From assembly GCA_965221275.1 (NCBI GenBank), contig OZ244875.1, positions 2,704,623 through 2,768,622 of the forward strand: a stretch of 64,000 nucleotides of DNA, given 5' to 3'. The position numbers were made by a program, and so were the translations under genes. This stretch comes from Phototrophicaceae bacterium. GTDB lineage: Bacteria; Chloroflexota; Anaerolineae; Aggregatilineales; Phototrophicaceae. The notes under the pieces are model-generated. The model was not told the origin of the DNA and made no database searches. It was given only the letters and a program-made list of their open reading frames with translations. Shown here piece after piece: positions 1,587 through 18,599 of the stretch. The first letter of the stretch is position 1; every line of letters starts with the position of its first letter.

Positions 1587-3995
1587 TCAAGCGCGGGCGG
1601 GCTGACCCCGCAATAGCCGCGAAAGAATCTTGTAATTGTTAGCGCGCTCGGGCGCATCGATCCGCTCATCGCCATGTATGTGCCGCAAGCAGCGCACGAG
1701 ATGAGACTCGATGACGTGTTGGCTGCGCGTGCGAGATTTGAGCCAGCTCTCGCCCCAGATCTCGGCGGCGACGCTGATGCAGTGCAGCGCTTGTTCGTTG
1801 AGCGCCTGGTTGATCGTTTTCGGCAGCAACTCGTCGATGAGATGCCAGCGCATATCTTGCCATTTGCCAGCCGCGATAATGGCGCCGGCAAACAGCACCA
1901 CATTGCGCCAGCGCGCATAATCATGACAGAGCAAGGCGACGATATTCTGTGGGAAGATCCAGCCTTCCGGGCTCGCTGCTTTTAGCCCTGCTGGCATCTT
2001 GCACTCGTCATAAAATTCCAGCAAGGCACAAGCCGCCAGGTATTCTTGAATAGTCAAGTGTGGGAAGCGATACAAGTTGGGCGCATCGGAAACCAGGATG
2101 CCATTGCGTGTGGCGAGGTACTCAAGCACGTCTTCGATGCCGGCTCCCAAGCCGCCGCCAAACGCTTGCTGCTCAATCAATTTGTCCAAGAGCCGCGCCC
2201 GATCGATGATGGTCGGGTAACGCTGGTAGCTCTGCTGCTCCGAATGTAGCTCAAAGGCGATCAATTTCAGCGCCGCCCGCATCCGATCCAAATTGATATT
2301 GGACAATTTTTCATGCAGTTTATCGGCTGGCGAGGGGATATTCCAACGATCGAGCAGCTCAACCGTGTGCTCGTAAAGCTCGGCGCGCTTGTCTGGCAAT
2401 TGACGATAATCCTCATGGATCAAGGTGAGCAGCGCCAACATCAATGGCTGTCGCGCCAGGGGCCACAATGCCCTGTTCTCTCTGATCGCTTTGTAAAGAT
2501 CAGCCACCATCAAGCCAGCCTGTTTGCTCGCCACTGCTCGCCCACCAAGCACGCTGGGGCGATTCTCCGCGACATTGGCATACCAGCGCTCTATGTATGT
2601 TTTCACTTGTTGCCAGGTGAAAGGCGCTAATTCAGCCGAGGCGAAGCGATCTGACAAGTGCCAACGTGAATCATGCCGATACGCATAAGTGCGGCTGGTG
2701 ACAATGATGCGGCAATTGGGAAAACGATCCGCCCAATTCTCGATAATCCGCTGCAGGATGATGCGGTCGCTCTCTTCATAAACTTCATCCAAGCCATCCA
2801 AGACCAGCAGACTACCATGCGTCGGCACATCGGTTTGGGTCAGATATGCTTCCAGATGCGGTCCCAGATTGCCGGTGGCTTCTTTAATGTAATTCAGCAG
2901 ATGTTCTGATGAACTTTCGTTCAGCGATTTGGGGAAAAGCTCTTGCCGGTTGGCGAAATCGCGCAGGCTGACATAGATCGGCAAGATGGGTCCATGGATC
3001 CAGGAGGCGCCCAACATCTCCAACCCTTTGACTTTGTCCTGCTTTTCAGCCCGCGGGTCACAGGCATAGGCGAGGGCGGTGACGATAAAGCGGCAAAGCG
3101 AACTCTTTCCCGTTCCGGCGGCCCCCGTGATGACGATCAGCGAGTGCGCGGAGATGACTTCAAAGACCGATTCGCGCACATAGCCCATATCTTTTTCAAT
3201 CGCTTGATAACGCCGCGCGTTCAGCTCTTCAATACCGACGGTGTGGAACTGCCGCTGGTCAGTCCAAATATCAACGGGTGTGTACAGTTGGTGTAACATG
3301 GCGGGTGTATGATGCTGCGAGGCGGGATGAATGACCGTGGTGGGTATGTTCCACTCGGTGCGCACCGCGGCAAGATAATTTTTGAGCGCCGATTTGTTGC
3401 CGTGATAATGCTCGGCGACAATATTGACATCTTGCCCGGCGAATATGACATGCCCCCCCGCCGAGATGGTCCCCGCTTGTACGCGCACGGCTGAGGGATA
3501 ATCCCCATATTCGCGCATCGCTTCCAGCAGGTTGCGGGCGAATTGTATCGCGCGTTGCCCCTGATTCGCCGAGCCATCCAAACCGCCAGTGGCAACGATC
3601 AACCAATCCAAGCCCACCAACTCATCGGCATTGAGCCGCTCCGGTAGCAGCTCGTCACCAGCCAGCTCCTCGGCAGTGCGGTTGTAATTTCGGTCTCGAT
3701 AGATCTCGGTCAGGCGTTTGCTCAACGGCGCGCAATAACGAAATTTCTTCAGCAACCGCCGCAGCAAAGTCAGCTTGGTGCTCGGGTTGGGCATCACCGG
3801 CGTGAACACCATCATGACCAGTTTTTGATAAGGTGAAGCCAGGGTGGATTGGTCTGCTTGTCGTTTAAGGGTGGACCAATTACTCTGGACAAATTTGCGC
3901 CAGGCAGCCGGAGATGCGATCATCAGTTGGCTGGGGCCGGCGCGGTTTTTTTTTGTGATAGCATCGCTAGCATGTCGTCGGGCGCGCTGATTCAT
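1587..3995 (-). CDS. Stand-alone NACHT/STAND P-loop NTPase with an unassigned N-terminal region of about 290 aa and a helical C-terminal region. Last gene of the TIR/STAND operon.
   Basis: 802 aa. Walker A GAAGTGKS (nt 3102-3125, verified on the reverse complement). Walker B LLVLDGLDEV. Pre-NACHT segment KNYLAAVRTEW...LYTPVDIW. N-terminal GHVIFAGQD (nt 3429-3455) is shared with the upstream small protein. No recognisable repeat sensor. Confidence 0.85.
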   Translation of the reverse strand: MNQRARRHASDAITKKNRAGPSQLMIASPAAWRKFVQSNWSTLKRQADQSTLASPYQKLVMMVFTPVMPNPSTKLTLLRRLLKKFRYCAPLSKRLTEIYRDRNYNRTAEELAGDELLPERLNADELVGLDWLIVATGGLDGSANQGQRAIQFARNLLEAMREYGDYPSAVRVQAGTISAGGHVIFAGQDVNIVAEHYHGNKSALKNYLAAVRTEWNIPTTVIHPASQHHTPAMLHQLYTPVDIWTDQRQFHTVGIEELNARRYQAIEKDMGYVRESVFEVISAHSLIVITGAAGTGKSSLCRFIVTALAYACDPRAEKQDKVKGLEMLGASWIHGPILPIYVSLRDFANRQELFPKSLNESSSEHLLNYIKEATGNLGPHLEAYLTQTDVPTHGSLLVLDGLDEVYEESDRIILQRIIENWADRFPNCRIIVTSRTYAYRHDSRWHLSDRFASAELAPFTWQQVKTYIERWYANVAENRPSVLGGRAVASKQAGLMVADLYKAIRENRALWPLARQPLMLALLTLIHEDYRQLPDKRAELYEHTVELLDRWNIPSPADKLHEKLSNINLDRMRAALKLIAFELHSEQQSYQRYPTIIDRARLLDKLIEQQAFGGGLGAGIEDVLEYLATRNGILVSDAPNLYRFPHLTIQEYLAACALLEFYDECKMPAGLKAASPEGWIFPQNIVALLCHDYARWRNVVLFAGAIIAAGKWQDMRWHLIDELLPKTINQALNEQALHCISVAAEIWGESWLKSRTRSQHVIESHLVRCLRHIHGDERIDAPERANNYKILSRLLRGQPARA

Positions 3996-4046
3996 CGGCA
4001 GCTCTCGATATCAAAATGGAAAAACGGCTGACCACTAGAAACTGTA

Positions 4047-4595
4047 TCAGATCTTCTTGGGCGATCGATGCCGCGAAATCGCCTCGTGAAAATTGAAAGC
4101 GACTTCCCCAGCGCTGGCGAGAATAGCGCCAACCAGCGGCTGATCAAATAGCGTCATGGCGGCGGCGGTCAAGGCGGGGGAGAAACGCAAAAGCGATTTC
4201 GCCGCGCGCACCAGAAGGCGAGTATTCGGCTTCTTGCTGGTGGTCAATTGCTGCTCAACCGTCTGCAGGTCGTGCATGGCGGCTTCCTGAGTTTCGCTAG
4301 GGAGTTCTTCTTTTTTGATCGTGTCTTCGATATTACGAATACACTGGATCATCATATCCAATTCTTGTGGCGTTGTCTCGACGCCGCCGACAGTGACAGT
4401 CTGGGTCGTATGCTGCGCTACATCGCCGCCCGTCTGCACTTTGACTTGGCCATCCCGCCCGGCAAAAACCACGTGCCCAGTGACGGATAAATGGTCGATT
4501 TCGATGTTCATATCACGGCGGTATGGCATAGTTTCTTCCAGGCTACGTTCGCTTGAGTCCATTGTCATCATCCCTTCTTTTCTGCCTGCGAGCAA
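4047..4595 (-). CDS. Small hypothetical protein (about 170-182 aa), adaptor-like. It has an N-terminal Gly/Val-rich beta-like segment, an acidic helical middle and a moderately hydrophobic C-terminus.
   Basis: The ORF lies between the TIR-FGE gene (29-nt gap) and the NACHT gene (51-nt gap) on the same strand. It contains GHVVFAGRD (nt 4452-4478). The start is uncertain: TTG at 4595, or ATG at 4562 preceded by GAAGGG-N9. No family recognised. Confidence 0.55.
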   Translation of the reverse strand: MLAGRKEGMMTMDSSERSLEETMPYRRDMNIEIDHLSVTGHVVFAGRDGQVKVQTGGDVAQHTTQTVTVGGVETTPQELDMMIQCIRNIEDTIKKEELPSETQEAAMHDLQTVEQQLTTSKKPNTRLLVRAAKSLLRFSPALTAAAMTLFDQPLVGAILASAGEVAFNFHEAISRHRSPKKI

Positions 4596-4624
4596 GTCTA
4601 CACTAACGAGCTATCTAAATCTGT

Positions 4625-6343
4625 CTAGGTCAATCCAACCAGCCGAATGCCAATTGAAGAATAGCGCACCTTGGGATCCAAATAATAGCGGATGGAGGTC
4701 TGGGCGCGGTCACAGGTACTGACGAAACTGCCCCCAGCCACCGCCCGTCGATAATCCCGCCCTTCTTCCGTCGCATCGGCGGTATTCAGGGTCCATTCCC
4801 AGATATTGCCTGCCATGTCAAATACGCCATAGGGGCTGACGCCTTTGTGATAACGGTCGACCGGCGTTGTCGTTCTCAAGCCCGTTTCTATTGTGTTGCA
4901 ATGTTCCTCGTGATATTCGTCTCCCCAAGGGAAATAGCGATCATCGTCCCCTTTGGCGGCGCGCTGCCATTGCGCAATCGTCGGCAGGGTGATCTTCATC
5001 TTGAGTTGATGTGCCAGCCAGTTGGCGAATGCCATCGCTTCATACCAGTTGACATTCTCCCGCGGATGCTTGCCGCCGCTGAAATGCGACTTAGACGGAC
5101 CTTTGCTCGACTTAAACCAGCGCTGGGCACGAGCGGAAAATTCCCACCAGCGCGGATTGCGGTAGCCATCTTCGGCTTGTACGAAAATGGCGAATTGCGC
5201 GTTAGTCACTGGATACTTACTCATAACAAAGTTGTCAACCTGCTCGGTCCTCTCGCCGAAGTCTTCATCTGCTCCCACAATGCTGGATACTGTGACGGTG
5301 CCGTGGGGAATGTCACACCATTTTAGCATAGGCAGAATTTCTTTGGTGCTCAACGTTGAATTATTGTCAAAGATATGGTTCGTCGGCGTCGCGCCGATTG
5401 CCTCGAACCTTGGCGGCTGCTTATGCCCAGGTCTGGGATTGTTCGCTGACGGGTTTGCTGGTGGTCTCACAGGGCTTTGGCTGACATCTTGCTTGTCTGC
5501 ATCCAAAATTGAGTCTGCTCGTGGCGGGGCATTTCGCTGGTTCGTGCTCCCATTTGGTGGATTTTCACCGGTAGCAGGCAGGCTGGAATCGCAGAAGCGG
5601 CGCAAGTTTTGGGGATCGTAATCGCCAAATTCTTTTCTGAACTCCGCCAGCGCTTCGCAAGCCATCTGCCGGGTACTCGCAAAATTGAAAAGCGCCACAA
5701 TATGCTCATACTCGCGTTCCACTTCGCGGTCTTGTGTCCGCTCTTTCAAAGCTGACTCAGCGATACGCAGCAGCTTGTCCAAGCGAATAAACTTTGATTG
5801 ATAGCCGCTGGCTCGCGCCCGCTTCAACAAAAGCACGGCATTATCGTAGTCGCCTTGTTCCAGTGCCTCGATGGCGTTGCTGACCCATTGAACGGGGTTG
5901 TCTTTGACAATGGGGTCGCTTTGGGGGGCCGCGCTGGCGATAGGCGGCGCGGTTTGGGCAGCGCGTTGCCGTTCCACGATCAAGATGGCATTCAACAATT
6001 GTGAGACATTTTCCACTGTCAAATTGTCGGATAGATCCACATATTGCCAGTCTTTCATGTTGTCTGGCAGCACCGTATCTTGGTTGATCAGCACCGGTAT
6101 GATGTCTCGCTTCAGCCGGTGGGCAATATCCAATTCGCGGCGACAATAGAGCGAGGCGATAGAATCCGGCGATAGCAGGTAGATGAAAACATCGCACCAA
6201 TCGAGCCGGCGCAGTATCTCTTTCCACCAATCTTGGCCCGCGTAAAGCCGCTGATCATACCAGACATCATGCGCGTGCAAGGTCTCGATGATGCGGATAC
6301 AATAAGGCTTGTCGACCCGCGCATAACTCACAAAGATTTTCAT
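4625..6343 (-). CDS. TIR domain protein fused to a C-terminal FGE-sulfatase (SUMF1/formylglycine-generating-enzyme-like) domain
   Basis: N-terminus MKIFVSYARVDKPY...VFIYLLSPDSIASLYCRRELDIA is a TIR_2-type fold with the conserved Glu (codon 6134-6136). A Pro/Asn-rich linker follows. C-terminus has FVMSKYPVTNAQF, HPRENVNWYEAMAFANWL, GVFDMAGNIWEWT and GGSFVS...IGIRLV, typical of the FGE-sulfatase fold. I moved the start to ATG 6343, which overlaps the upstream stop as ATGA. The track ORF extends to 6385. Confidence 0.85.
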   Translation of the reverse strand: MKIFVSYARVDKPYCIRIIETLHAHDVWYDQRLYAGQDWWKEILRRLDWCDVFIYLLSPDSIASLYCRRELDIAHRLKRDIIPVLINQDTVLPDNMKDWQYVDLSDNLTVENVSQLLNAILIVERQRAAQTAPPIASAAPQSDPIVKDNPVQWVSNAIEALEQGDYDNAVLLLKRARASGYQSKFIRLDKLLRIAESALKERTQDREVEREYEHIVALFNFASTRQMACEALAEFRKEFGDYDPQNLRRFCDSSLPATGENPPNGSTNQRNAPPRADSILDADKQDVSQSPVRPPANPSANNPRPGHKQPPRFEAIGATPTNHIFDNNSTLSTKEILPMLKWCDIPHGTVTVSSIVGADEDFGERTEQVDNFVMSKYPVTNAQFAIFVQAEDGYRNPRWWEFSARAQRWFKSSKGPSKSHFSGGKHPRENVNWYEAMAFANWLAHQLKMKITLPTIAQWQRAAKGDDDRYFPWGDEYHEEHCNTIETGLRTTTPVDRYHKGVSPYGVFDMAGNIWEWTLNTADATEEGRDYRRAVAGGSFVSTCDRAQTSIRYYLDPKVRYSSIGIRLVGLT

Positions 6344-9300
6344 AGTGCGTTCTGCTTTTCCGCCGCGAGCAGTAGAGCGCGGCATGCATCGCTGTCGATA
6401 CGTCGTAAGGCCTGGATCGCCAAATCCCGCAGTGATTCCTCCTCCCAGGAAGGTTTGGCATCATCGTGAAGCAATTGTTGCAAAAGCGGCAAATCGGTCT
6501 CGTCCATATCTGGCGCCAATTGCTTCATAGCATACCAGCGCAGGTGTAGATAACCATCGCTGAGCGCATATTCGAGCTGGCTACGGACATCAGTTGGCTT
6601 GATCTGGCAGATGGCTTTGAGAGCGGCAAGGCGCACAAAACCATCCGGGTCGCGTTTTAGCGTTTCACTGAGCATGGGGATCGCTCCCTCATATTGCAAT
6701 TCGCCGAGGGCTTCGACCGTGGCTTCCCGCACAGCTTTTTGCGAGCTTTGCAGCAAGGGCATCATTCGATCGACACTGTCTACAGCGCCCAGCTCGACTA
6801 GGGAGCGAACTACCGCGACCTGTACAATCCAGCTTGGGTCATTGAGTCCTTCGCTCAAATATGGGATTGCCTCTCGATTTCGCAGCATCGCCAAGGCTTC
6901 CGCCACTGCCCAGCGCACGCTCCAATTGTCATCGCTCAAGCTGCTGCACAGCAAACGCATAATTCGCAGGTTGTCCCTTCCACGCAGGTACTTGGCGAAC
7001 TTGCGCAAGAATTTGGCTGCTTTTTGCGTCCTGCCCCAATCATCATCGCGCAACACTTCCAAGGTTCGGGTGATCTTTTCCTCGTCGCTGAATGCATCTC
7101 TGGATTGTTCGGTGTCTCTACTGCTTTCTGCATCGGACGCTGAAATCGATTCCTCCAGGCGTGGCTCTGCATTTGCGATGGCATCCAAGGCTGCTCGCGC
7201 ATGTCGGCTGAGACTGATGTCATCATCGCTGGCTCGCCTTCCATCATCAAGCAGTTGTCTCAGTTCGGCCGTCGCCGGCTGATATTGCGCATCGCCTAAA
7301 ATCGAAATTGCCGCGGCGACTGTTCTGGCATTATCGCTATCGAGCAAATCGATCAAGGCTTCGTAATCCACCGCGGTCGCCGTTTTGAGCAGATCAATAA
7401 TTGCAGCGACAATTTCTTGATCGGGGTCGGACAAGGCGGCGATGACCGCTTTTTGGGCGGCGGGTTCTCCCTCGAATTGGCAGAGCATTTCATAGGCAGC
7501 CAACCGCAGGCTTTTGTCATCATCGTTCGTCGCTTCAAGCAAGAGTGGTAGAATGGCGGCGGTCGGATAGTCAATCAGACGGTTGAGCGCGCGGTGACGC
7601 TGTTGCCAATCGCTATGGTGCAACTGCTCTAGCAATTCAACCGGCAGAGCGCTGGTAGGCGCAGCTGCCACCGAGGATTTGTCGAAGAGCGGCTCTCCAT
7701 AAACGAGCGCTTCGAGATTGCTACCGGCGATGATGGTTGGCTCGGGAGGGTCCTCCAGCACGCGCTCTATGGCGCTGAGCAATTGCTGAAAGCCCTCGCG
7801 ATTTGGCAAATGCTTGATCGCCCCAGCCAGCAAATGCTGAAGCTCGTTGCTGTTTTTCTTGCCTAAGAGCGCCATTTGAATCATATCGGGCAAGTCCACC
7901 TGCTGCGCGGCGACTCGCGCCAGCCCAAGGGCAATATCGCTTTCCGCCGTATTGACGACAATCTCATAAAACTCCGGATTCAGCGTCAGCCGCCCGGCAT
8001 CGGCAAGAGCGAGCAGCTGGCTAGATACCAGCCGTTTCTGCTCGGCGAGTGCCTCGATAACAACACTGCGATGCTGCGGATTATCCTGCGACCAATGCAG
8101 CACACGGGTCAAAATATCGGAATAAGCGTATTTCATCAGCGCCAGCACGATCTCGCCCCGGTCATCATCGTGCCAATCTTCTTCCAGGCAATTGAGTAAG
8201 GGCAGAGCGGTCGGCAAGTATTTGAGTTCGCCCAAGATCCAGATCGCATTGCGCCGCAGCCGCAGATCTTGATCTTGCGACAGCTTTAGCAAATAAGCCA
8301 CCGATAGCGACAGCGGGTAGCCCGCCAGTTGATCGATCTCGCTTGCCGGCGAATTGCGGTCGATCTCCGCCACGGTCTCGATGAAGTCGATCGGCAATTC
8401 CAGCGGCAGGGCACGGATTTCATGCCAGAGCCATAATTGCTTTGGATTGTCATAATGACCCAGTTGTTGAATCAGTAAATCGGCAGTGATGTCCGGCTTT
8501 GGCAAATTACGGACTGCTTCACGAAAGGCGTTTTGCGCTGTGGGGTTTTGCGCGCACAATTGCACTAGCTTGGCAATCAGCCTCTGTTGATAACTGCCGT
8601 AGAGCTCAGGATGTCGCTGCAAACACATATTGGCAACAAAGGGGTCGATATCGACGATCCTGTCAATGGCGCGCAGGCGATTCTCCTCCGTCAGCGAATC
8701 GACCACCAGCAGCGCCAAACTGTCCCATTTCTGGCGCCGACGCCCGCCTAGCGCCGAGAATTCGGGACTGGTCAGATATTTTGCCATGCCATCTTTTTTG
8801 AGATTCTCGATGGCGAGATAGCTTTGGAAGATCTCGGATGTGAAATGGAGTTTTTCATGTTCTATGGAGACAATCCCCAACTCGAGCGCGCAATCGATGA
8901 TGCCGGCGTCCGCCCCTTGTAAGCTGGCGGAATTCCGCGGCAAGAAGCGATGATTGTCTTGCAACATCATCGACCAGGCAAGGGCTTGCAAGAATTTCAG
9001 CACTTGCTCGGTCCGCAAACCCCTAAACGCGCTGGGCAGCTGCCGCGAGCGCATAGCGATCAGTGCGGGCAGCGGATTTTTCTGCCATTGGCTGAAGGCT
9101 AAAGAGCGATCGTTCGCTAGCAACTCCAAGCCGATTGACAAATAATCCAGTTGGCTATTCTCAATCAGCGGTCTTTTTTGACGCAATAGCTGTCGGAAGC
9201 TGTTTTGTTGTTCCAGGGTGAGGTAGCCGCTGGCAAACTTCTGTGCTAGCGCGGTAGTCAGCGCCTTTGTTTCCAGCACTGGCAGGCTTGGCTCGGCATT

Positions 9301-10335
9301 TGTCTGCCCGGTGGATAGAATCAGAAATTTGTGCTTGGGGCTAGCGTCAATCCAATTGGAAACGCTGCTGACCAAGGCTGGATAATCAGCGCAGAAGACA
9401 TTCCAATTGTCCAGCACAAACAAAGCGCGATGCGTCTCCAACCAATGTTGCCAGAAAGAAAGCAGGGACCACTGCGCTTCGATGAAGGCCTCGAGTGAAT
9501 GGTGCTGCTCATCCCAGTGCGCCAAGTCAAGCCAGATCGGCAGGGCGGCTCCCTCGTCGTGTATGGCAGCTTGCGCCTGTGCCAGCGCCAACAAGCGGGC
9601 GAAGAAAGTCTTGCCGCTGCCGCTATCGCCGCGGATGATGAATTGTGGCTCAGCCTCCGCCCATTGCAGCAGGTCTTCCACTGGCAGAGCATTGCCCGCT
9701 TTCAAGCCCGTGAAATCCCAGCCCTGCAAGAATCGGGTTTGATACAAGCGCGGACGTATGTCCTTGTTGCCGGATATATCGCTGTTCCGCATAGTTGCCC
9801 ATGAAGTTGGCATCTTCGCCAGCGACAGCTCGGTCTCCTCGATGAAACCGCGCAGATAGTCGAGGCGTTCGCCCGTCTGCAAAACCGATGCCGATTCCGG
9901 TATCCGGCTCAGCAAATTCTCCACGCTATGATCATCGGGATTCTCAAACCAGCGGCGAAAGTCGATCCAGTCGTCAAAGGGGAAATCGGCGATCAGTTCG
10001 GTCGAGAAATCGCGGGGGATAACCGCGGTAATCGCTATATCACGAGCTTTGAAGTGGTCAAATTCGGCGCGGCAATAAGGCGAACGCAGGTAATCATCCG
10101 ATACGACCACAATGGCGCCAGTCGCCTGGTTTCGCAGCTGGCGGATCTTGCCCTCCCAATCTTCGTTAGGTCCTATTTCGAAGCGATCGAGCCAGACATT
10201 GCGATAGTAGCGAAGCAACAGGTTGGCGAGCCGGAAGGCGTAGCTCATATCGATGTTATGATAGGAAAGATAAACCAAGCTCTCGTTGATCACGGAACCT
10301 CTTGCGGTTGGACTATTCGATTTCCTATGTTCCAA
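6340..10335 (-). CDS. TIR - STAND/NACHT-like P-loop NTPase - HEAT-repeat protein (1331 aa). First gene of the operon.
   Basis: TIR: LVYLSYHNID...AIVVVSDDYLRSPYCRAEF, with the conserved Glu codon at 10063-10065. Walker A GDSGSGKT (nt 9607-9630, verified). Walker-B-like ALFVLDNW. The C-terminal ~650 aa carry many PBS-lyase/HEAT-like repeats (e.g. DDNWSVRWAVAEALAMLRNREAIPYLSEGLNDPSWIVQVAVVRSLVELG). The track start is TTG 10335. GTG at 10293 preceded by AAGAGG is an alternative. Confidence 0.85.
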   Translation of the reverse strand: MEHRKSNSPTARGSVINESLVYLSYHNIDMSYAFRLANLLLRYYRNVWLDRFEIGPNEDWEGKIRQLRNQATGAIVVVSDDYLRSPYCRAEFDHFKARDIAITAVIPRDFSTELIADFPFDDWIDFRRWFENPDDHSVENLLSRIPESASVLQTGERLDYLRGFIEETELSLAKMPTSWATMRNSDISGNKDIRPRLYQTRFLQGWDFTGLKAGNALPVEDLLQWAEAEPQFIIRGDSGSGKTFFARLLALAQAQAAIHDEGAALPIWLDLAHWDEQHHSLEAFIEAQWSLLSFWQHWLETHRALFVLDNWNVFCADYPALVSSVSNWIDASPKHKFLILSTGQTNAEPSLPVLETKALTTALAQKFASGYLTLEQQNSFRQLLRQKRPLIENSQLDYLSIGLELLANDRSLAFSQWQKNPLPALIAMRSRQLPSAFRGLRTEQVLKFLQALAWSMMLQDNHRFLPRNSASLQGADAGIIDCALELGIVSIEHEKLHFTSEIFQSYLAIENLKKDGMAKYLTSPEFSALGGRRRQKWDSLALLVVDSLTEENRLRAIDRIVDIDPFVANMCLQRHPELYGSYQQRLIAKLVQLCAQNPTAQNAFREAVRNLPKPDITADLLIQQLGHYDNPKQLWLWHEIRALPLELPIDFIETVAEIDRNSPASEIDQLAGYPLSLSVAYLLKLSQDQDLRLRRNAIWILGELKYLPTALPLLNCLEEDWHDDDRGEIVLALMKYAYSDILTRVLHWSQDNPQHRSVVIEALAEQKRLVSSQLLALADAGRLTLNPEFYEIVVNTAESDIALGLARVAAQQVDLPDMIQMALLGKKNSNELQHLLAGAIKHLPNREGFQQLLSAIERVLEDPPEPTIIAGSNLEALVYGEPLFDKSSVAAAPTSALPVELLEQLHHSDWQQRHRALNRLIDYPTAAILPLLLEATNDDDKSLRLAAYEMLCQFEGEPAAQKAVIAALSDPDQEIVAAIIDLLKTATAVDYEALIDLLDSDNARTVAAAISILGDAQYQPATAELRQLLDDGRRASDDDISLSRHARAALDAIANAEPRLEESISASDAESSRDTEQSRDAFSDEEKITRTLEVLRDDDWGRTQKAAKFLRKFAKYLRGRDNLRIMRLLCSSLSDDNWSVRWAVAEALAMLRNREAIPYLSEGLNDPSWIVQVAVVRSLVELGAVDSVDRMMPLLQSSQKAVREATVEALGELQYEGAIPMLSETLKRDPDGFVRLAALKAICQIKPTDVRSQLEYALSDGYLHLRWYAMKQLAPDMDETDLPLLQQLLHDDAKPSWEEESLRDLAIQALRRIDSDACRALLLAAEKQNAL

Positions 10336-10414
10336 TTATACTGTCAGCCGGCAAGCCTTCAATCAAATATCAGTGGCAATCTTTGAAGTTTGCGCTACGA
10401 GAGGGTGGCTTGGC

Positions 10415-11377: not shown

Positions 11378-12538
11378 TCAAAAGAGAGAGGGCTCAGCCG
11401 AAAGCAATTCCTTCGCTTCCCGCGCCATCTTCAGCAAGCGAAAATGCCGAACCTCGGCGAAGAACTCCGCGATTACTTCGAGGCTGTTGTTATCATGCGT
11501 GCGCATTAGCCCCTCTTGGTTCGCTTCGTCGATCAAGTTGTTGATATCTTGCTTGACGCCAGCCAAGCCTCGTAGCGTCATGCCACAGGTGTAACCCAGG
11601 CGCGCCAGCTTTTCATCGCCTTGCCAACCAGCTTCTCGCAAGCCCGCGATATAGCCAGCGAAAACCGCCTGATCAACCTGTTCAGCGTATTCTTGTGAGA
11701 AGCCAGCGTAATGCAAGCTGACCGCCACCAGAGCCACCAAGTCCTCCCCAATGGCTCCCTGCCCGCAAACCGCCCAATCCAGCAGGACAATGTCATTCTC
11801 ACGATGTAATACATTGCGGCGGAAGGCATCAATATGGCAGAGCGTTTTCGGCAGCTTCGCCAGCGCCTGACGATATATCTCCCGCTCTTGCCAGATCGTT
11901 TTGATCTCAGCTGCGGCGGCAATCGGCAGCGTCAGTTGAACCAGCGAATGCTCCAGCAATTGATCCAGGCTCTCAAGGGTGTCTGCCAGCTCGGGTACGA
12001 TCGCGCTATGCCAATTGTGAGTCAGCCAATGATAATCGGGCAGGGCAAGCGCCGCCAGCCAGGCGCCGTTAAAGCGGCCGAGACGCAAGCCGATATTTTC
12101 ATAATCTGCCAGCGACCAACTCTCCTTGTGATCATCGATGTCTTCCATCCAGATCCAACAGCTGTCGCCAAAGTCTTGCAAAGCGAAAATGCGTGGTGTC
12201 ACGAAGCTGCCGGCTGGCATGCTATCTATTATGCCAGATCGATAGACCTCATATTCCCGTTTCCAATAATAGGGAGACTGTTCATTCTCATTCGGGCGTT
12301 GGTAGAGGATCTTTAATATCAGCGAACAAGGCTGCTCTGTCGTAGTACGCAAAGTAAAGCGATAAAGCGCTGTACCACCTATGGCGCCACCGAAGCCCCC
12401 ATAGACCGGCGCATACTCCCAAGACAGAACTTCCGCCCCCGCATCAGCCAGAGCAATGCGAGCCACCGCGGTCAACTGACTGCTTGATAGGGAGTCCAGC
12501 CGGTCTTGTGTAACGGTGTTTTGCGGGTTTGGAAACAT
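11378..12538 (-). CDS. Phosphotransferase-family protein (APH / choline-kinase-like kinase fold)
   Basis: 386 aa. Catalytic-loop-like CHIDAFRRNVL (HxDxxxxN) and DWAVCGQGAIGEDL (DxD-like metal-binding region). Confidence 0.6.
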   Translation of the reverse strand: MFPNPQNTVTQDRLDSLSSSQLTAVARIALADAGAEVLSWEYAPVYGGFGGAIGGTALYRFTLRTTTEQPCSLILKILYQRPNENEQSPYYWKREYEVYRSGIIDSMPAGSFVTPRIFALQDFGDSCWIWMEDIDDHKESWSLADYENIGLRLGRFNGAWLAALALPDYHWLTHNWHSAIVPELADTLESLDQLLEHSLVQLTLPIAAAAEIKTIWQEREIYRQALAKLPKTLCHIDAFRRNVLHRENDIVLLDWAVCGQGAIGEDLVALVAVSLHYAGFSQEYAEQVDQAVFAGYIAGLREAGWQGDEKLARLGYTCGMTLRGLAGVKQDINNLIDEANQEGLMRTHDNNSLEVIAEFFAEVRHFRLLKMAREAKELLSAEPSLF

Positions 12539-12543
12539 GCGCT

Positions 12544-13254
12544 CTAGTCAATGCCGAGGTAGGTCTTCTGTACGGTCTCGTTTTCTCGCAGGTTGGCGGC
12601 ACTATCGCTGATAGCGACCTCACCACTCTGCAATACATAACCGCGATCCGCGATTTGTAGAGCCATGTGGGCATTCTGTTCGACCAGCAAGATCGTCACG
12701 CCTTCGTTCGCGATCCGCTGCACGGTATCGAAGACCCCATCCACCAGTACCGGCGCCAAACCCATCGATGGTTCATCCAGCAATAGCAATCGTGGCTTTG
12801 CCATTAACGCTCGTGCGATAGCTAACATCTGTTGCTCGCCGCCGCTCAGCGTGCCCGCTAGCTGCTTCTTGCGCTCTTCCAGCCGGGGGAACATTTCATA
12901 AGCGTTTCGCAGGTCTGCATTGATCGTGTTGTCGCGCCGCGTATAAGCGCCCATATCGAGATTCTCTTCCACTGTTAGTTTTGCGAAGACACCACGCCCC
13001 TCTGGCACCATGGAGATCCCTTTGGAGACCAGCATGTCCGCGCGTTCATGGGAGATCGCCTCCCCATCATAAAGGACTCTGCCTTCACGCGGTTGCATCA
13101 AACCAGAAATCGTGCGCAGGGTGGTCGTCTTGCCCGCGCCATTGGAGCCGATGAGGGCGATGATTTCGCCACTGTCCACTTCAAATGAGACGCCTTTGAG
13201 CGCGTGAATATTGCCGTAATAGGTATGAATGTCTTTGACTTCCAGGAGTGCCAT
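12544..13254 (-). CDS. livF: Branched-chain amino acid ABC transporter, ATP-binding protein (LivF type)
   Basis: 236 aa. Walker A GSNGAGKTT, signature LSGGEQQML, Walker B LLLLDEPS. It lies in a Liv-like operon. Confidence 0.9.
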   Translation of the reverse strand: MALLEVKDIHTYYGNIHALKGVSFEVDSGEIIALIGSNGAGKTTTLRTISGLMQPREGRVLYDGEAISHERADMLVSKGISMVPEGRGVFAKLTVEENLDMGAYTRRDNTINADLRNAYEMFPRLEERKKQLAGTLSGGEQQMLAIARALMAKPRLLLLDEPSMGLAPVLVDGVFDTVQRIANEGVTILLVEQNAHMALQIADRGYVLQSGEVAISDSAANLRENETVQKTYLGID

Positions 13255-13273
13255 ATCAGCTAACCATCTTCGT

Positions 13274-14101
13274 TCAGTTTTCCAGATTGACGTTGTTGTT
13301 GGCTGCCGCGCCCCGCCCCAGATAAGCCTCGATCACATCGGGATTGGTCTGAATATCCGCTGGCAGCCCTTCAGCGATCTTACGCCCATAATCGAGTACG
13401 GTGATATGCTCCGAGATATCCATCACCACGCGCATATCATGCTCGATCAAGACAACAGTAATGCCCAATTCATCGCGCAGGCGGCGAATGAAATCGGTAG
13501 TCTCGATGGTCTCGCGCGGGTTCATGCCGGCTGTCGGTTCATCGAGCAAGATGAGCTTGGGCTTGCTGGCCAGCGCCCGCCCGATTTCCAGCCGCCGCTG
13601 ATCGCCATAAGCCAGGTTCTTGGAAAGCATATCGCCTTTGCCTTCGAGACCGACAAAATAGAGCAATTCGCGAGCGCGCTCTTCGGTAAGGGCATCTTCA
13701 TCCCGGGTTGATGGCAAACCAAGAATCGCGCCGATCCAGGTTGATTTCAGGTGAGGTTCTTGCCCCACCATAATATTCTCGATCGCTGACATATTGCTGA
13801 ATAGCCGGATATTTTGGAAGGTCCGCGCGATGCCTGCCCGTGTGATTTGGTCGGGGGATTTGCCGTTAATGCGGGTTCCATCGAAGCGGATTTCGCCTTC
13901 ATCGATCTGGTAGAATCCGGTGATGCAATTGAAGAAGGTGGTCTTGCCAGCGCCGTTAGGACCGATGATGCTGGCGATAGCGTCTTCCGGGATATAAAAA
14001 TCGAGATTGTCCACGGCGACCAATCCACTAAAGCGCTTGGTCATGCCCGTCGCTTCCAGAATTCGCTTCGGCTTCTGTTCTTTGTTGTTTTCTGCCGCCA
14101 T
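13274..14101 (-). CDS. livG: Branched-chain amino acid ABC transporter, ATP-binding protein (LivG type)
   Basis: 275 aa. Walker A GPNGAGKTT, LAYGDQRRLEIGRAL, LILLDEPTAGMNP. Confidence 0.9.
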   Translation of the reverse strand: MAAENNKEQKPKRILEATGMTKRFSGLVAVDNLDFYIPEDAIASIIGPNGAGKTTFFNCITGFYQIDEGEIRFDGTRINGKSPDQITRAGIARTFQNIRLFSNMSAIENIMVGQEPHLKSTWIGAILGLPSTRDEDALTEERARELLYFVGLEGKGDMLSKNLAYGDQRRLEIGRALASKPKLILLDEPTAGMNPRETIETTDFIRRLRDELGITVVLIEHDMRVVMDISEHITVLDYGRKIAEGLPADIQTNPDVIEAYLGRGAAANNNVNLEN

Positions 14102-14121
14102 GACAGCGCCCCTCCGCTACG

Positions 14122-16005
14122 CTATTGAGCCGGGCTCATTTTTGTTTTGACACCGGTCCGGGTTTCATGCATCACCAACTTGGACGGGATAAAGCCCTGT
14201 GGGCGTTTGATCATCATCAAGATCAACAGCGCGCCATACATCAAGAAGCGAAAATCGGAAAACTCGCGTAATAATTCTGGCATGCCAATTAGCACGACAG
14301 CGCCAATGACGACGCCGGGATTGCTGGCGATGCCGCCAACGATAATCAAGCTCAACACATTGATCGAGATGAACACGGTGAAACTATTGGGGAAGACGGT
14401 GCCCACTTTGGCCGCAAAGATCGCCCCTGCTACACCGCCGGTGGCCGCGCTCAGCGTGAAGGCCAGCAACTTGGCGCGCGCCGTATCAATGCCCATGGCG
14501 GTGGCGACATCTTCGTCCTCGCGTATCGCCATCCATTGGCGCCCAGTGCGAGAATTGTTCAGCCGTATCGAAACAAACAAAGTGACTAAACAGGCGACCA
14601 GCACAATATAATAGAGTTGCTCCGGGTTCTTGAGCTCCGTGCCCAGGAAGATAGGTTTGGGGATTGCCTGAACACCTTGCGCCCCGCCGATCAGCGGTTT
14701 CAACCAGTCAGAGATTGCCAGCTTGCCAATAATCTCGCCAAAGCCCAGGGTGGCAATTGCCAAGTAATCGCCGCGCATCCGCAAAACCGGGACCGCGAAG
14801 ATAAAACCGGCGAACATTGCTGCCAGCAAAGCGATGGGAATAACCATCCAAAAAGTGAAGCTGCCCTTCATCAAGCCCAGTGGTCCCAAAGATGTCAAAA
14901 CTGCCAGAATATAAGCGCCGACCGCGTAATTGGTCACATAACCCAAATCCAGCAAACCCGCCAAGCCAATCGCGATGTTCAAGCCCAGCCCCATCAAGAC
15001 AAAGAGGCCGATGGTCACCGCCACATCACTCAAGGTGCGCCCGATCAGCCAGGGCAGCATCAATAGAATGGCGGCAAGAATCAGCATGCCGATCCCGTTC
15101 ACCCGGCGCCGTTGCCCGCTTTCCATATTGCTGAAGCCTGCTCGGGCACGTTCACCAAACATCGCCCAGAGGAAACCGGCCACTGTGCTGACCAGGAAAA
15201 GCAAGATCGCGGCATTCTGTCTCAATGTGTCGCGCTGGAAAATTTCTCGCAGCGTATCTCGATCGAGGTTCTCTTGCAGCACCAGGCGCACGGTCTCACC
15301 AAATGCGCCGACCAGCAAGGTCACGCCCAAGCCGTATAACAAGGCGCGACGTGGGATACTAGGTATCACATAAAAAACTGCGCCGACCACACCAGCCGCT
15401 ATCGATGCGAAGCAGAACGTCAAGATCCCGGTCAGGAGTTCTCTGCGATTGTCAAAAGTGATGACTTCCACCCAGTCGCGGTTGATATGCACCAACACCG
15501 AGCGCAGGTCGCCCTTGACTTCAAAGATTAGCGCCAGTGAAAAAGTCACTATCCCCAATAACAGCGCGATCAATAACCAGCTGCCACCCACAACTATAGT
15601 CTCAGCGCCGTTACGATACGATCGCCAAGCAAAGTAGCTGGCGACAATCAAAGGGATCAGCCGCAGCGTAATACCCAGCAAAAAGCGGTATTCGTCAGAA
15701 TTGAATAGCAGCAGAATCACGCTGGGCATCGCGGTCAATAGGCTCACGATCACCGCAGCAAGCAATGTTGTCAGGATTGTTGTGTTGCCACCGCGGGTCT
15801 CGCTCAACCGATCTGCCATCATGAAAGCTGTGACAAATGGGGCGAGCAGCAAGATCAACTGTCCAAGCGTGATGAAGTCTTTCACCACTTCCCGTTCGTG
15901 GAAAGCGGCGATCATGCCCACTGCTCCGGTATAGAGAATGAATGCGCCGGAGAGCAAACCCAGGGAAATGACCGTTCTCGCAGTCTGCGATTTGAGCAAA
16001 TTCAT
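14122..16005 (-). CDS. livM: Branched-chain amino acid ABC transporter permease (LivM type) with a long N-terminal multi-TM extension
   Basis: 627 aa. The C-terminal ~330 aa match the LivM core (GLNIAIGLAGLLDLGYV..., ...LMYGALLILMMIKRPQG). The N-terminal ~295 aa are extra TM segments. Confidence 0.85.
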   Translation of the reverse strand: MNLLKSQTARTVISLGLLSGAFILYTGAVGMIAAFHEREVVKDFITLGQLILLLAPFVTAFMMADRLSETRGGNTTILTTLLAAVIVSLLTAMPSVILLLFNSDEYRFLLGITLRLIPLIVASYFAWRSYRNGAETIVVGGSWLLIALLLGIVTFSLALIFEVKGDLRSVLVHINRDWVEVITFDNRRELLTGILTFCFASIAAGVVGAVFYVIPSIPRRALLYGLGVTLLVGAFGETVRLVLQENLDRDTLREIFQRDTLRQNAAILLFLVSTVAGFLWAMFGERARAGFSNMESGQRRRVNGIGMLILAAILLMLPWLIGRTLSDVAVTIGLFVLMGLGLNIAIGLAGLLDLGYVTNYAVGAYILAVLTSLGPLGLMKGSFTFWMVIPIALLAAMFAGFIFAVPVLRMRGDYLAIATLGFGEIIGKLAISDWLKPLIGGAQGVQAIPKPIFLGTELKNPEQLYYIVLVACLVTLFVSIRLNNSRTGRQWMAIREDEDVATAMGIDTARAKLLAFTLSAATGGVAGAIFAAKVGTVFPNSFTVFISINVLSLIIVGGIASNPGVVIGAVVLIGMPELLREFSDFRFLMYGALLILMMIKRPQGFIPSKLVMHETRTGVKTKMSPAQ

Positions 16006-16015
16006 AGCGCCCCTC

Positions 16016-17095
16016 CTAGGCTTTCTTCTCGGACAGGCGTTCGCCCAGGATGCCTTGGGGGCGGAAGATCAGCACCAATACCAGCATGGTGAAGGCGATC
16101 ACATCTTTGAGTTGGTTGGCGCCGGGAATGCCCAAACCCGCCAAGACCAGGTTTGGTCCCATAGCTTCGATCACGCCGAGGAACAAGCCACCCAGCATCG
16201 CGCCGGGAATATTGCCGATGCCCCCAAGCACCGCCGCCGTGAAAGCTTTGATGCCCGGTATGAAACCCATGAAGAAATTGACCCCCTGTGGACGGAAGAG
16301 CCCATTAATCACACCAGCCGAACCAGCAAGAAAGCCCCCAACGCCGAAGGTGAAGAGGATGACCCAATCGATGTCGATGCCCATCAAACGGGCAACTTCC
16401 TTGTTTTCCGAAACAGCGCGCATGGCTTTGCCGACCCGCGTCCGCTCCACCAACCAATAGAGGCAGAGCATCAAAAGCAAAGCCGAGCAGAACACAAAAA
16501 TCTGCACCACCGGGATGTTGATATTACCGATTTCGATCACGCCTTGTAGCGCCTGGACTTGCGGATAAGCTTTGAAGCCGGAGCCGTACAAGCCGCGAAA
16601 GGTATATTGCAAAAAGAAGGACGCGCCGATGGCGGTAATCAGCGGTACCAGGCGGGGACTGCCGCGCAAGGGGCGATAGGCAAGGCGCTCGACCAAGATC
16701 GCCACTGTCATCGAAATCAAGCCGGCGAACATGATCATCAGTAAAATCGCCAACAAGGGCTGTTCGTTGAGGAAGCCCGTTCGATTTAGCGCCTCAGCCA
16801 GAAAAACTGTCGAGAAAGCGCCAGCCATGAACACCTCGCCATGAGCGAAATTGATCATGAGCAGGATGCCATATACCAGCGTGTACCCAAGGGCGATCAG
16901 CGCGTAGATGCTGCCTTGTGACAAGCCAGCGATGAAGAGGTTGACCCACTGCGCAAAGGTGATACGCCCCGAAGAGAGTGTGTTCCAGGCGCCGACAACA
17001 ACGGCTAATACAATGACGATGCGTAGCACATCAATCGTGAAATCGACCCAGGAAAAATCATCTTTGTTGAATTTGAACATAAGCGCAACCGTCAA
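16016..17095 (-). CDS. livH: Branched-chain amino acid ABC transporter permease (LivH type)
   Basis: 359 aa. GSIYALIALGYTLVYGILLMINFAHGEVFM is the LivH hallmark. Confidence 0.9.
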   Translation of the reverse strand: MTVALMFKFNKDDFSWVDFTIDVLRIVIVLAVVVGAWNTLSSGRITFAQWVNLFIAGLSQGSIYALIALGYTLVYGILLMINFAHGEVFMAGAFSTVFLAEALNRTGFLNEQPLLAILLMIMFAGLISMTVAILVERLAYRPLRGSPRLVPLITAIGASFFLQYTFRGLYGSGFKAYPQVQALQGVIEIGNINIPVVQIFVFCSALLLMLCLYWLVERTRVGKAMRAVSENKEVARLMGIDIDWVILFTFGVGGFLAGSAGVINGLFRPQGVNFFMGFIPGIKAFTAAVLGGIGNIPGAMLGGLFLGVIEAMGPNLVLAGLGIPGANQLKDVIAFTMLVLVLIFRPQGILGERLSEKKA

Positions 17096-17169
17096 GCTAA
17101 GTCGGCAAAATGAAGTCCCAAGAATAAATTCATTTTGAAATGACTAGTGTCAAATTTAGGGTAGAACAG

Positions 17170-18438
17170 TCATCTATTCTCCTGCCGCGCCGCAAAATTC
17201 CAAGCTAGTGGCGGGGGCCAATTGTCATCATATACTTCAGCTTCGGTAACCAGGAACATTGCCAAGGCGCTGCCCGTCGCGCAGTCGCCATCGAAGGGCG
17301 ATTCTTCTTGACAAGTCAACCTGCCGGTCAAACCAGGATACTCTTCGGTGTTGGCTAGGGCTTCACGAATGGCGCTGCGGCCGATGATCAAACTCCCATC
17401 TGCTAACTCGATCGCAGCGGCGGTGACTGCATCAAGCAGCAAGTTGGTCGCGTCATAAGCGTGGGCATGGTAGCCGCCGGGCGGCGTCCCGCCGATCTCT
17501 TCTTCCCATGCCATCAGCAATTCTTCATATTCCTCACCGGTCACCAGCGGACCTGAAATATAAATGCCGATGGCGGCCTCGCCCGTATTTTCGGGGAAGC
17601 TCGCCACAAAGCTTGCTCCACCAGCGATAATCGTGCTGCTCTCCAACTCTGATATTTGCTGCATCTGTGCCGTGAAAAAATTGGATTCTGGCTCAAACAA
17701 GGGCAGGTAAATGACATCGGGAGCGTAGACAGCGATCTCGGTCAGAATCGAGGTCATATCAGTATCGCCTTTATTGACCGCGCCCTCGAAAACAACTTCC
17801 CCACCCAGATCGGTGAAGGTATCCGCCACTACGCGAGAAAGCCCTTCGGTGTATGGATCGCCATCATGCACTGTCGCCAAACTTGCCGCCTCCAAGACAT
17901 TTACCGCGAACTCGGCATTGCGCATCCCTTCCATCAAGCCGTTGTGGCTGGTGCGAAAATAGCCGGGCAGATGGGAACCGCCTGCGTCAATATTCGCATT
18001 TGTCAGGCTGGGCGAGGTATTCGATGGGGCGATCATCACCATGCGGGCCTCGCTAATGATGGGCATGGCGCCTTGTGCCGCGCTGGAGCAACTGGTGCCG
18101 ATGACGCCAATAATGCTTTCGTCGGCAGACAGCCGTTGAGCTGCCGCTTGCCCGCCTTCGGCTGAACACAGGCTGTCTTCAAGCACAAGCTCGATGTCGT
18201 GCCCCAGCAGCGATTCACCGCGATCGAGTATCGCCAGCTCCACACCTCCAAGCGCATCTTCACCAAGATAGGACACCGCGCCAGAAACAGCCAACATGGC
18301 GCCGATCGCTATCGGATCCTCCGGTCCCACTTCGATGCAGCCAAAGCTGTCTTCGCACGATTGTTGTGCCAGGAGTGGCAAGCAGCACAGGAAGAGCAAG
18401 CTCAAAATCACCAACAAGCGGATCAAATATCTGGTCAC
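17170..18438 (-). CDS. ABC transporter substrate-binding protein, LivK/type-1 periplasmic-binding fold (paralog 2)
   Basis: 422 aa. Has a signal peptide. IAIGAMLAVSGAVSYLGED..., GVIGTSCSSAAQGA. Clearly paralogous to the neighbouring gene along its whole length. Confidence 0.85.
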   Translation of the reverse strand: MTRYLIRLLVILSLLFLCCLPLLAQQSCEDSFGCIEVGPEDPIAIGAMLAVSGAVSYLGEDALGGVELAILDRGESLLGHDIELVLEDSLCSAEGGQAAAQRLSADESIIGVIGTSCSSAAQGAMPIISEARMVMIAPSNTSPSLTNANIDAGGSHLPGYFRTSHNGLMEGMRNAEFAVNVLEAASLATVHDGDPYTEGLSRVVADTFTDLGGEVVFEGAVNKGDTDMTSILTEIAVYAPDVIYLPLFEPESNFFTAQMQQISELESSTIIAGGASFVASFPENTGEAAIGIYISGPLVTGEEYEELLMAWEEEIGGTPPGGYHAHAYDATNLLLDAVTAAAIELADGSLIIGRSAIREALANTEEYPGLTGRLTCQEESPFDGDCATGSALAMFLVTEAEVYDDNWPPPLAWNFAARQENR

Positions 18439-18552
18439 AGGGTAGAATCCATTGCCGTTGTTGTGGCTATCTGCAAGCGATGTTGATGTCTACACAAAAT
18501 AGCACTTGCCATTATCTGGTTCGCTGCCTGTAGGGTGACGCCGTGAAACCGC

Positions 18553-18599
18553 AAAAAAGTGAAAGACAAGCCCAAGATATATCACTCGGGCTTGTCTTT
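18553..18599 (-). terminator. Rho-independent terminator between the two binding-protein paralogs
   Basis: Perfect 12-bp inverted repeat aaagacaagccc (18562-18573) / gggcttgtcttt (18588-18599). On the minus strand it is followed by a T-run (plus-strand aaaaaa, 18553-18558). Confidence 0.6.

Follow-up and report, generated by a model that had tools for sequence, protein, structure and literature searches.

What is a tight block of four genes, with two TIR domains, two NACHT domains and a small protein of unfamiliar type, doing in a bacterial genome, and which of its parts would carry the response? We asked this of a 64,000-nucleotide (nt) stretch of a Phototrophicaceae (Chloroflexota) genome (contig OZ244875.1, positions 2,704,623 to 2,768,622; the whole stretch is called the window). 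The minus-strand block 1587-10335 of the window is filled by four long open reading frames (ORFs), which we call g1 to g4 in the order in which they are read: a TIR-NACHT-HEAT protein (g1), a TIR protein with a lectin-like FGE-sulfatase domain (g2), a small helical protein (g3) and a second NACHT protein (g4). Parts of these kinds serve innate immunity and cell suicide in animals, plants and bacteria. To judge from the sequences, a short motif present in both g3 and g4 is probably the coupling between a molecular switch and its small executioner. We tentatively interpret the cassette as a multi-gene variant of the STAND/TIR conflict systems, with two TIR sensors, g4 as a NACHT hub and g3 as an effector coupled to the hub by the motif, which would be homotypic and possibly amyloid-like. 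In filamentous Chloroflexota the output would most likely be either a cell-autonomous form of immunity or a regulated death or arrest of the cell.

A motif shared by g3 and g4

The g3 motif region, MNIEIDHLSVTGHVVFAGRDGQVKVQTGGDVAQHTTQTVTVGG (4383-4511, minus strand, amino acids (aa) 21-63), is made up of alternating short strands with Gly turns between them, and its g4 counterpart, YPSAVRVQAGTISAGGHVIFAGQDVNIVAEHYHGN, lies at 3396-3500 (minus strand, aa 166-200). The two match over ~24 residues (MNIEIDHLSVTGHVVFAGRDGQV in g3, VRVQAGTISAGGHVIFAGQDVNI in g4), and both copies have short strands with alternating hydrophobic residues and Gly-rich turns between. A further segment of g3, QVKVQTGGDVAQHTTQTVTVGG, resembles a second pseudo-repeat. 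The match was recovered by BLASTP (E 7e-4), by hhalign profile-profile alignment (E 1.2e-4 over 30 ungapped columns) and with a 35-residue hidden Markov model (HMM) of the g4 motif. In a search of 1517 ORF segments, drawn from nine loci in addition to the window, the five best non-g4 matches of this HMM were the g3 proteins of five loci. The shared motif that a preliminary description of this DNA had proposed is real. The g4-motif HMM did not find the motif in g1 or g2.

The composition of the motif is strongly biased. Over the 46 residues scored in g3 (aa 22-67), 67% are G, V, T, Q, N or I and 4% are K, P or L. Amyloid signalling motifs of bacteria and fungi, as well as beta-solenoids, are reported to have a bias of this kind, rich in G/N/Q/V and poor in K/P/L (Dyrka et al. 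2020, bioRxiv 10.1101/2020.01.06.895854). The motif is the most conserved part of g3, and in g4 it falls in the best-conserved stretch (aa 161-275, 90% median identity). AlphaFold2 (AF2) gives g4 aa 181-197 a predicted local distance difference test score (pLDDT) of <50 and the adjacent helical domain (3501-3923, minus strand, aa 25-165) a score of ~90. High conservation of a segment that the monomer model leaves without structure is as expected of one that would fold only in a complex or polymer.

We compared cognate and non-cognate g3/g4 pairs over seven lineages by permutation, and the cognate motif scores summed to 181 against a permutation mean of 140, a value reached by 14 of 720 permutations. 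Lineage-specific matching can be seen directly in the NAGxNAIxA of both L078 proteins versus the GHV[VI]FAG of both window proteins. Strict residue-by-residue co-variation is seen only in part. The main clade, L001 and L071 have an invariant g3 motif, and their g4 alternates between GGHV and GQN[VI]. We regard the pair-specific co-variation as suggestive, not strong, because the cognate score exceeds the 99th percentile of shuffled motifs in only four of the seven lineages.

HEAT/ARM solenoids typically bind extended peptides, and the motif could instead be a docking peptide, a short strand offered by both g3 and g4 to a third partner such as g1 with its HEAT solenoid or g2 with its lectin-like domain, or else a remnant of common descent. 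The internal position of the motif in g4, the modest pair-specific signal and the failure of AF2 to give either copy a structure all fit such a role. However, the co-variation of cognate motifs in some lineages, as between L078 and the window, argues against it. In addition, the motif pair is still kept at locus L073, where the g1-like protein is strongly remodelled. We consider the docking-peptide explanation unlikely.

Beyond its N-terminal strand-prone motif, g3 consists of a helical bundle with a C-terminal hydrophobic helix-turn-helix. The helical domain (4074-4370, minus strand, aa 68-166) contains the hydrophobic hairpin SPALTAAAMTLFDQPLVGAILASAGEVA and is modelled by AF2 as six helices with pLDDT 86-95; overall aa 56-166 are confident and aa 1-55 have pLDDT <50. 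We found no Pfam match to g3 (E up to 5) and none in NCBIfam. Foldseek searches of PDB and BFVD with g3 and the g4 N-terminal domain returned nothing below E 0.2 (best PDB match of the g3 bundle, E 0.27), and a PDB-sequence profile search with the same two queries returned nothing below E 0.0017. A flagellin structural match in these searches was discarded as a coiled-coil artefact. There is a weak match of g3 to PDC-M14B (7e-7); PDC-M14 is unmentioned in the literature searched, and PDC-M14A has no match on g4.

The g3 family is small and homogeneous. An exhaustive HMMER search of 1.84 billion representatives yielded 42 proteins of 44-206 aa, of which 39 are not obvious fragments and span 134-206 aa; none of the 42 is fused to another domain. 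The part conserved throughout the family is the helical domain, chiefly its C-terminal hydrophobic helix-turn-helix, P.LAG.L..LF..P.VG.I...AG..A. In three family members the Kyte-Doolittle mean of the hairpin is 1.4-1.7 over 19 aa. A g3 search also returned 147 clusters at 60-85% identity, none with a functional annotation, and the organisms named in it are metagenome-assembled genomes (MAGs) of Chloroflexota. We inspected the genomic context of eight distant family members, and five of them (P0120, P0137, P0139, P0143 and P0147) adjoin a g4-like NACHT gene. P0152 is followed by a g4-type N-domain on a contig that ends too soon to show more, the contig of P0150 is too short to judge its neighbours, and the weakest match, P0159, has no adjoining NACHT gene.

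The proposed NACHT hub and the TIR proteins

The g4 ORF (1587-3995, minus strand, 802 aa) encodes a central NACHT domain (Pfam NACHT, 3e-12, with further matches to NPHP3_N and nSTAND1) with a Walker A motif GAAGTGKS at 3102-3125 and a Walker B motif LLVLDGLDEV at 2781-2810, both on the minus strand. All 69 orthologues have the Walker A Lys and the Walker B Asp, and the positions beside these hardly vary. No Pfam family covers the N-terminal ~270 aa, even at E up to 5, and for the helical domain within them neither Pfam and PDB sequences nor Foldseek searches of PDB and BFVD show a relative. Pfam recognises no repeats in the C-terminal 322 aa, and Pfam, NCBIfam and the PDB-sequence profile search recognise neither an effector domain nor repeats anywhere in the protein.

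The division of g4 into parts is visible at locus L072 (1705-3936), where it is split into a 256-aa gene for the N-domain plus motif and a 482-aa NACHT gene, followed by a 50-aa ORF; the 256-aa gene sits between the small gene and the NACHT gene. This split may be a genuine gene fission or a MAG frameshift. The N-domain and motif behave as a module, since they form a separate gene there. The preliminary description had called g4 an effector-less second NACHT. It does lack a known effector domain, but it is not merely second, as g4 is the most constrained component of the cassette. Together, g4 and g3 are its conserved core.

The other NACHT protein, g1, has a maximal ORF of 1331 aa at 6340-10335 (minus strand), counted from TTG 10335. 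It encodes a TIR domain (~9913-10275; Pfam TIR_2, 6e-14), the P-loop GDSGSGKT (9607-9630) and HEAT/ARM repeats (~6343-8298; Pfam HEAT_2, 4e-44), all on the minus strand; its Pfam NACHT match is weak (1e-6, 29.2 bits, over a cut-off of 26.7). The TIR Glu is invariant in all 63 orthologues, and the Walker A Lys is kept in 51 of the 63. One subclade (L012, L017, L023, L026, L027, L029 and L047-L051) has lost the two Walker residues together: T, R, G or L stands in place of the Walker A Lys and N, K or E in place of the Walker B Asp, and these genes still have the 1300-aa ORF and the TIR Glu. At L044 there is a lone K-to-I change at Walker A. The g1 NACHT of the subclade is almost certainly an inactive scaffold, and the g1 NTPase is dispensable there. 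Because the Walker residues are lost while the ORF and TIR Glu are kept, g4 is the indispensable NTPase, and it is the only one that the cassette always retains. Both P-loops noted earlier are present in the window, and conservation across relatives is complete for that of g4 and partial for that of g1.

We also observed g1 in two ORFs at L004 (4205-8213; 845 and 469 aa) and at L035 (4340-8271). In near-identical genomes (L003 and L005) g1 is unbroken. The broken genes are either recent pseudogenes or assembly errors.

The g2 ORF (4625-6385, minus strand; 4625-6343 and 572 aa from its ATG) encodes, in order, a TIR domain (~5996-6337, minus strand; Pfam TIR_2, 3e-22), a linker and an FGE-sulfatase-like domain that has the C-type-lectin fold (~4637-5317, minus strand; 5e-41). 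Its TIR Glu is invariant in 70 of 70 orthologues. The domains that had been named for g1, g2 and g4 are thus all found by Pfam, with g3 lacking any Pfam domain, and the two Glu codons lie exactly where they had been placed, at 10065-10063 in g1 and 6136-6134 in g2; their conservation, proposed from the window, extends to every orthologue of both proteins. The two TIR domains, both of the TIR_2 type, are paralogous (27% identity, E 1e-8). By sequence the nearest solved TIR is the CRISPR-associated Cat1, a weak match (E 0.12) in which WCWDELE aligns to LYCRRELD of g2. Because both TIRs keep the catalytic Glu, we propose that, once assembled, they probably either cleave NAD+ or produce a signal derived from NAD.

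The closest solved proteins to the g2 FGE domain are the ToxD FGE-like domain, FGE, EgtB and TvpA, the variable protein of a diversity-generating retroelement (DGR). The g2 domain is not hypervariable (79% median identity), and the 64-kb window holds no DGR template repeat. We rejected a DGR link for this window, as the only repeats in it are paralogous transporter genes.

Relation to known systems and a proposed mechanism

Does the cassette belong to a system that already has a name? PADLOC v2.0.0 returned only weak single-domain TIR, HEAT or P-loop matches, with no system and no Avs/bNACHT model, and NCBIfam gave nothing above its cut-offs for the cassette proteins (EruA reached 25 bits against a cut-off of 1000). 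The earlier statement that no named system fits is borne out, and the cassette belongs to no named family. The design principle of the cassette has, however, been set out before in computational studies (Kaur et al., Dyrka et al., and the Bab/Agp work). Systems of STAND NTPase, FGS and TIR components have been described in which an adaptor copy on the NTPase matches a copy on separate effectors (Kaur et al. 2020, PMC7159879; 2021, PMC8195603), and the bacteria that carry them are said to have a multicellular habit (PMC7159879, PMC8195603). Additionally, pairs of a sensor gene and a small effector gene coupled by a short shared motif have been described (Dyrka et al. 2020, bioRxiv 10.1101/2020.01.06.895854), among them Bab/Agp (Ibarlosa et al. 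2024, bioRxiv 10.1101/2024.11.07.622273). Because adaptor coupling is thus already published, we treat the cassette as a variant and not as a new category; its domain vocabulary and adaptor logic place it among the NTP-dependent conflict systems of Kaur et al.

The closest relatives in design are the systems coupled by effector-associated domains (EADs). Like them, the cassette combines a NACHT-clade STAND NTPase, TIR, a lectin-like FGS domain and alpha-helical repeats, with one adaptor copy on the NTPase (here g4) and one on the partner encoded by the adjacent gene (here g3). Unlike them, it has its FGS domain fused to TIR, whereas theirs is fused to the STAND NTPase and is often DGR-diversified; it also has two NTPases and no DGR. 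The element shared by g3 and g4 is a short strand motif instead of a folded domain, with no match to Pfam EAD, bDLD or TRADD-N, and the adaptor partner g3 is a new helical domain.

The amyloid signalling pairs (Bell/BASS, Bab/Agp and the fungal HET-S/NWD2) offer a second precedent. As in these, a gene for a large sensor or NTPase adjoins one for a small helical protein, the shared motif is ~20-25 residues long, with much G/V/Q/N/T and little K/P/L, and the g3 copy resembles two pseudo-repeats. Amyloid pairs associated with nucleotide-binding leucine-rich repeat receptors (NLRs) have been reported in filamentous bacteria, including Chloroflexi (bioRxiv 10.1101/2020.01.06.895854; 10.1101/2024.11.07.622273). 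However, their motifs lie at the effector C-terminus and the NLR N-terminus, whereas here the motif is at the N-terminus of g3 and behind a 140-aa helical domain in g4. The cassette also includes two extra TIR genes, and g3 matches Bell, HeLo or BB domains neither in sequence nor in fold.

Other defence systems share fewer features. The g1 layout of N-terminal TIR effector, NACHT and C-terminal repeats is that of bNACHT and Avs/AVAST proteins. That layout is not seen in g4, which has no recognised effector domain or repeats; g4 is a STAND NTPase with Walker A and B intact, as g1 is in the window. Unlike these systems, the cassette is obligately multi-gene, lies outside any defence island and has a g1 NTPase that is dead in one subclade. 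The g2 TIR resembles Thoeris in keeping the catalytic Glu. Its matches to ThsB models are weak and partial (E 7e-6 to 9e-3), and it reaches 19 bits against a cut-off of 220 for the NCBIfam Thoeris type III ThcB4 model. In contrast to Thoeris, neither g1-g4 nor their neighbours encode a ThsA-type SIR2, transmembrane or Macro/SLOG effector, and the cassette has no recognisable receptor for a TIR product. Plant TIR-NLR/helper-NLR networks, as a functional analogy only, also combine a TIR sensor NLR, a conserved repeat-less second NLR and a helical executioner. Here nothing is homologous beyond the TIR and STAND folds, an EDS1-like signal receptor is lacking, and the executioner is a separate small protein. 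A literature search for sponge Chloroflexi with TIR/NACHT proteins found nothing relevant.

With these precedents, we propose the following order of events. The g1 and g2 proteins would be the ligand-binding inputs, responding to a putative trigger with a predicted NADase activity. The hub, g4, would be an obligatory NTP-driven switch, reached by a presumed link from the TIR arm, and g3 would be its small effector. Oligomerisation of g4 would gather its motifs together, and the clustered motifs could then contact g3 and recruit or template its N-terminal motif in an amyloid or beta-arch manner. The helical domain of g3 would thereby be released, and its buried hydrophobic hairpin may attack the membrane. 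This putative templating and membrane attack would be the effect of g3 in a candidate immune function.

A more specific version of this mechanism is a cascade of sensor NLR, helper NLR and executioner, in which g1 and g2 activate g4, and g4 converts g3, a new kind of small pore-forming protein, through an undescribed amyloid-like beta-solenoid motif. We think this version improbable. If true, it would add a new family of amyloid signalling motifs and a new executioner fold, and it would be a prokaryotic counterpart of the logic that links plant TIR-NLRs to helper NLRs and resistosomes.

Gene layout, distribution and selection

Are the four genes one unit? The stop codon of g1 (TGA 6342-6340) and the ATG of g2 (6343-6341) share an ATGA overlap at 6343-6340, and g3 and g4 are 51 nt apart. 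The g3 ORF (4047-4595, minus strand) more likely starts at ATG 4571, with GAAGGG in front (4047-4571, 174 aa), than at TTG 4595, which changes the g2-g3 spacing from 29 nt to 53 nt. Of the close packing described earlier, the overlap and the 51-nt gap therefore stand, and the 29-nt gap holds only with the TTG start. Upstream of g1 lies a promoter-like, sigma-70-like pair, TTGAAG-16 nt-TATAAT (10335-10362, minus strand). It is no more than a match to the consensus, the sole one in the region with 10 of 12 consensus positions, and the number of promoter-like sites in the region is not above shuffled expectation. Because this -35/-10 pair (10362-10335) ends on TTG 10335, we favour GTG 10293, which has AAGAGG 4 nt upstream, as the more likely g1 start (1317 aa). 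That the four genes form one operon encoding a STAND/TIR regulated-response module is our tentative conclusion, plausible but short of probable.

We scanned one genome per GTDB species with g3 and obtained 66 loci. All 66 are from Chloroflexota, with submitter labels of Anaerolineae, Aggregatilineales or Phototrophicaceae, and the isolate names of many source genomes are those that we take to be given to sponge and coral metagenome bins. The co-occurrence of the genes had been named beforehand as one requirement of the proposal. We found g1-g4 all present and in unchanged order in every locus with enough flanking DNA, so that the gene set is kept wherever it can be checked, in the 66 species-level loci and in metagenome contigs. 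ORFs are intact for 62 of 65 g1, 69 of 70 g2 and 71 of 71 g3 genes, and for all 68 g4 genes that contig ends do not cut. Four extra loci from Joint Genome Institute (JGI) metagenomes, the only ones returned by a scan with the g4-motif alignment, also agree. As all loci were retrieved through g3, cassette-free genomes are outside the sample, and a core status is not thereby established.

Divergent versions of the cassette bear on whether it is one system or two. In L001 (g3 60%, g4 62%, g1 36% identity), L083 (55%, 57% and 34%) and L077 (g3 37%, g4 42%) the cassette lies in other genomic contexts, and the g1-like protein of L077 has the P-loop and HEAT repeats with no TIR in its called part. 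The identity of g3 across distant versions falls to 25-37%. Partial cassettes at L072 and L078 retain the order FGE-small-NACHT. At L073 (1-5723) the small gene and a convergent g4-like NACHT gene are separated by a stand-alone Response_reg receiver gene, and there is no FGE gene; a divergently oriented TIR-HEAT protein there has no NACHT, and Thr replaces the catalytic Glu (YCRSTL).

The four genes could be two independent neighbours, a bNACHT/Avs-like g1 with g2 as its partner and a separate NACHT/small-effector pair of g3 and g4. The motif is common to g3 and g4 only, the pair persists in L073 beside a g1-like gene without NACHT and Glu, and g1 by itself is built like a bacterial NLR of the single-gene kind. 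We judge this improbable and less likely than a single system: L001, L077 and L083 keep the four genes together between unrelated flanks, at g3 identities of 37-60%, and in L072 and L078 too the small gene has the FGE gene directly upstream. Furthermore, the spacing is tight with one promoter-like site, and no sensor repeats can be recognised in g4 itself.

The setting of the cassette is stable. In the main clade it is flanked by EamA, APH and branched-chain amino-acid ABC transporter genes on one side and GSDH genes on the other, and the remaining window genes are housekeeping (M16 peptidases, RNase J, MetK). No integrases, transposases or other defence genes lie near the cassette in the window. 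A phage origin was rejected, as no viral contig in IMG/VR encodes g3. Median identity to the window proteins over ~65 genomes is 85% for g4 (NACHT 88%, C-terminal third 86%), 78% for g3, 67% for g2 (TIR 84%, linker 48%) and 55% for g1; among the neighbours it is 88% for the ABC ATPases, 70% for EamA, 66% for GSDH and 59% for APH. We calculated pairwise ratios of nonsynonymous to synonymous substitution rates (dN/dS; NG86, 400 pairs), partly saturated with dS of 1.0-1.4, and obtained 0.24 for g1, 0.15 for g2, 0.12 for g3 and 0.09 for g4, indicating purifying selection on all four genes. By both measures g4 evolves slowest and g1 fastest, a gradient that fits a hub with a faster-evolving sensor. 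The constraint on g4 equals that on a transporter ATPase. With its synteny, vertical inheritance and purifying selection, the locus does not resemble a mobile defence island.

These data lend real support to the main rival explanation, a conserved non-defence signalling or cell-fate module of the lineage that would reuse NLR/TIR parts and act in stress dormancy, in filament or cell-death control, or in interaction with a sponge or coral host. The same flanks recur in nearly all genomes, dN/dS is low (0.09-0.24), the conservation of g4 equals that of the ABC ATPases, mobile genes and viral contigs with g3 are lacking, and the FGE domain is conserved without a DGR. Going by record titles, the source genomes are mostly sponge or coral MAGs, and the L073 variant has a response-regulator receiver gene and a Glu-less TIR. 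However, sets of TIR, NACHT and HEAT or FGE domains occur, in the literature surveyed, overwhelmingly in conflict systems (PMC7159879, PMC8195603), the invariance of the catalytic Glu points to an output that consumes NAD, and a core status does not follow from loci retrieved through g3. We consider a non-defence role possible but rather unlikely.

The interpretation as a STAND/TIR conflict variant is favoured by the tight spacing with a single promoter-like site upstream of g1, by the similarity of the motif composition to known beta-arch and amyloid signalling motifs, and by the precedents of EAD coupling and Bab/Agp. Several points weigh against it. Its evidence is drawn entirely from sequence and predicted structure, the hhalign probability of the motif match is only 55% and the match is short, the pair specificity of the motif is limited as described above, and its placement is the reverse of that in described amyloid signalling pairs. 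Pfam, PADLOC and NCBIfam detect no SLOG, SAVED, Macro or CARF nucleotide-sensor domain in g3 or g4, so nothing ties the TIR output to g4. The g3 fold has no detectable similarity to Bell, HeLo or MLKL (MLKL only at Foldseek E 4.7), and its hairpin is borderline for membrane insertion. Finally, unlike typical defence genes, the cassette occupies a fixed chromosomal site amid housekeeping genes without mobile elements in every one of the ~70 genomes recovered, with all four genes under purifying selection and an FGE domain without hypervariability or DGR.

If the model holds, the cassette would be a compact and genetically tractable four-gene case of bacterial NLR-like proteins wired in series, with sensor, hub and separate executioner, unlike the single-gene Avs and bNACHT systems. 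It would add a new short coupling motif and two domains, the g3 bundle and the N-domain of g4, for which no relatives are known. It would also be a conflict-type module inherited in a core-like manner across a lineage of sponge- and coral-associated Chloroflexota, and such stable inheritance would question the view that these modules are always mobile, patchy defence islands. The natural loss of the g1 NTPase in one subclade, where all else is kept, is a ready-made evolutionary experiment on which components are essential.

Some observations concern the surroundings of the cassette. The branched-chain amino-acid ABC transporter operon (roughly 12544-19906) includes two tandem paralogous Peripla_BP_6 genes of 422 and 423 aa (17170-19906, minus strand), whose DNA is ~72% identical with the copies 1471 nt apart. 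Two window ORFs, at 24044-25489 (plus strand, 481 aa) and 40646-42517 (plus strand, 623 aa), match no Pfam family at E <= 1e-5. Downstream of the L001 cassette, four tandem paralogous S-Me-THD (PF06032) genes lie beside a hydantoinase gene (11526-14778) and are unrelated to it.

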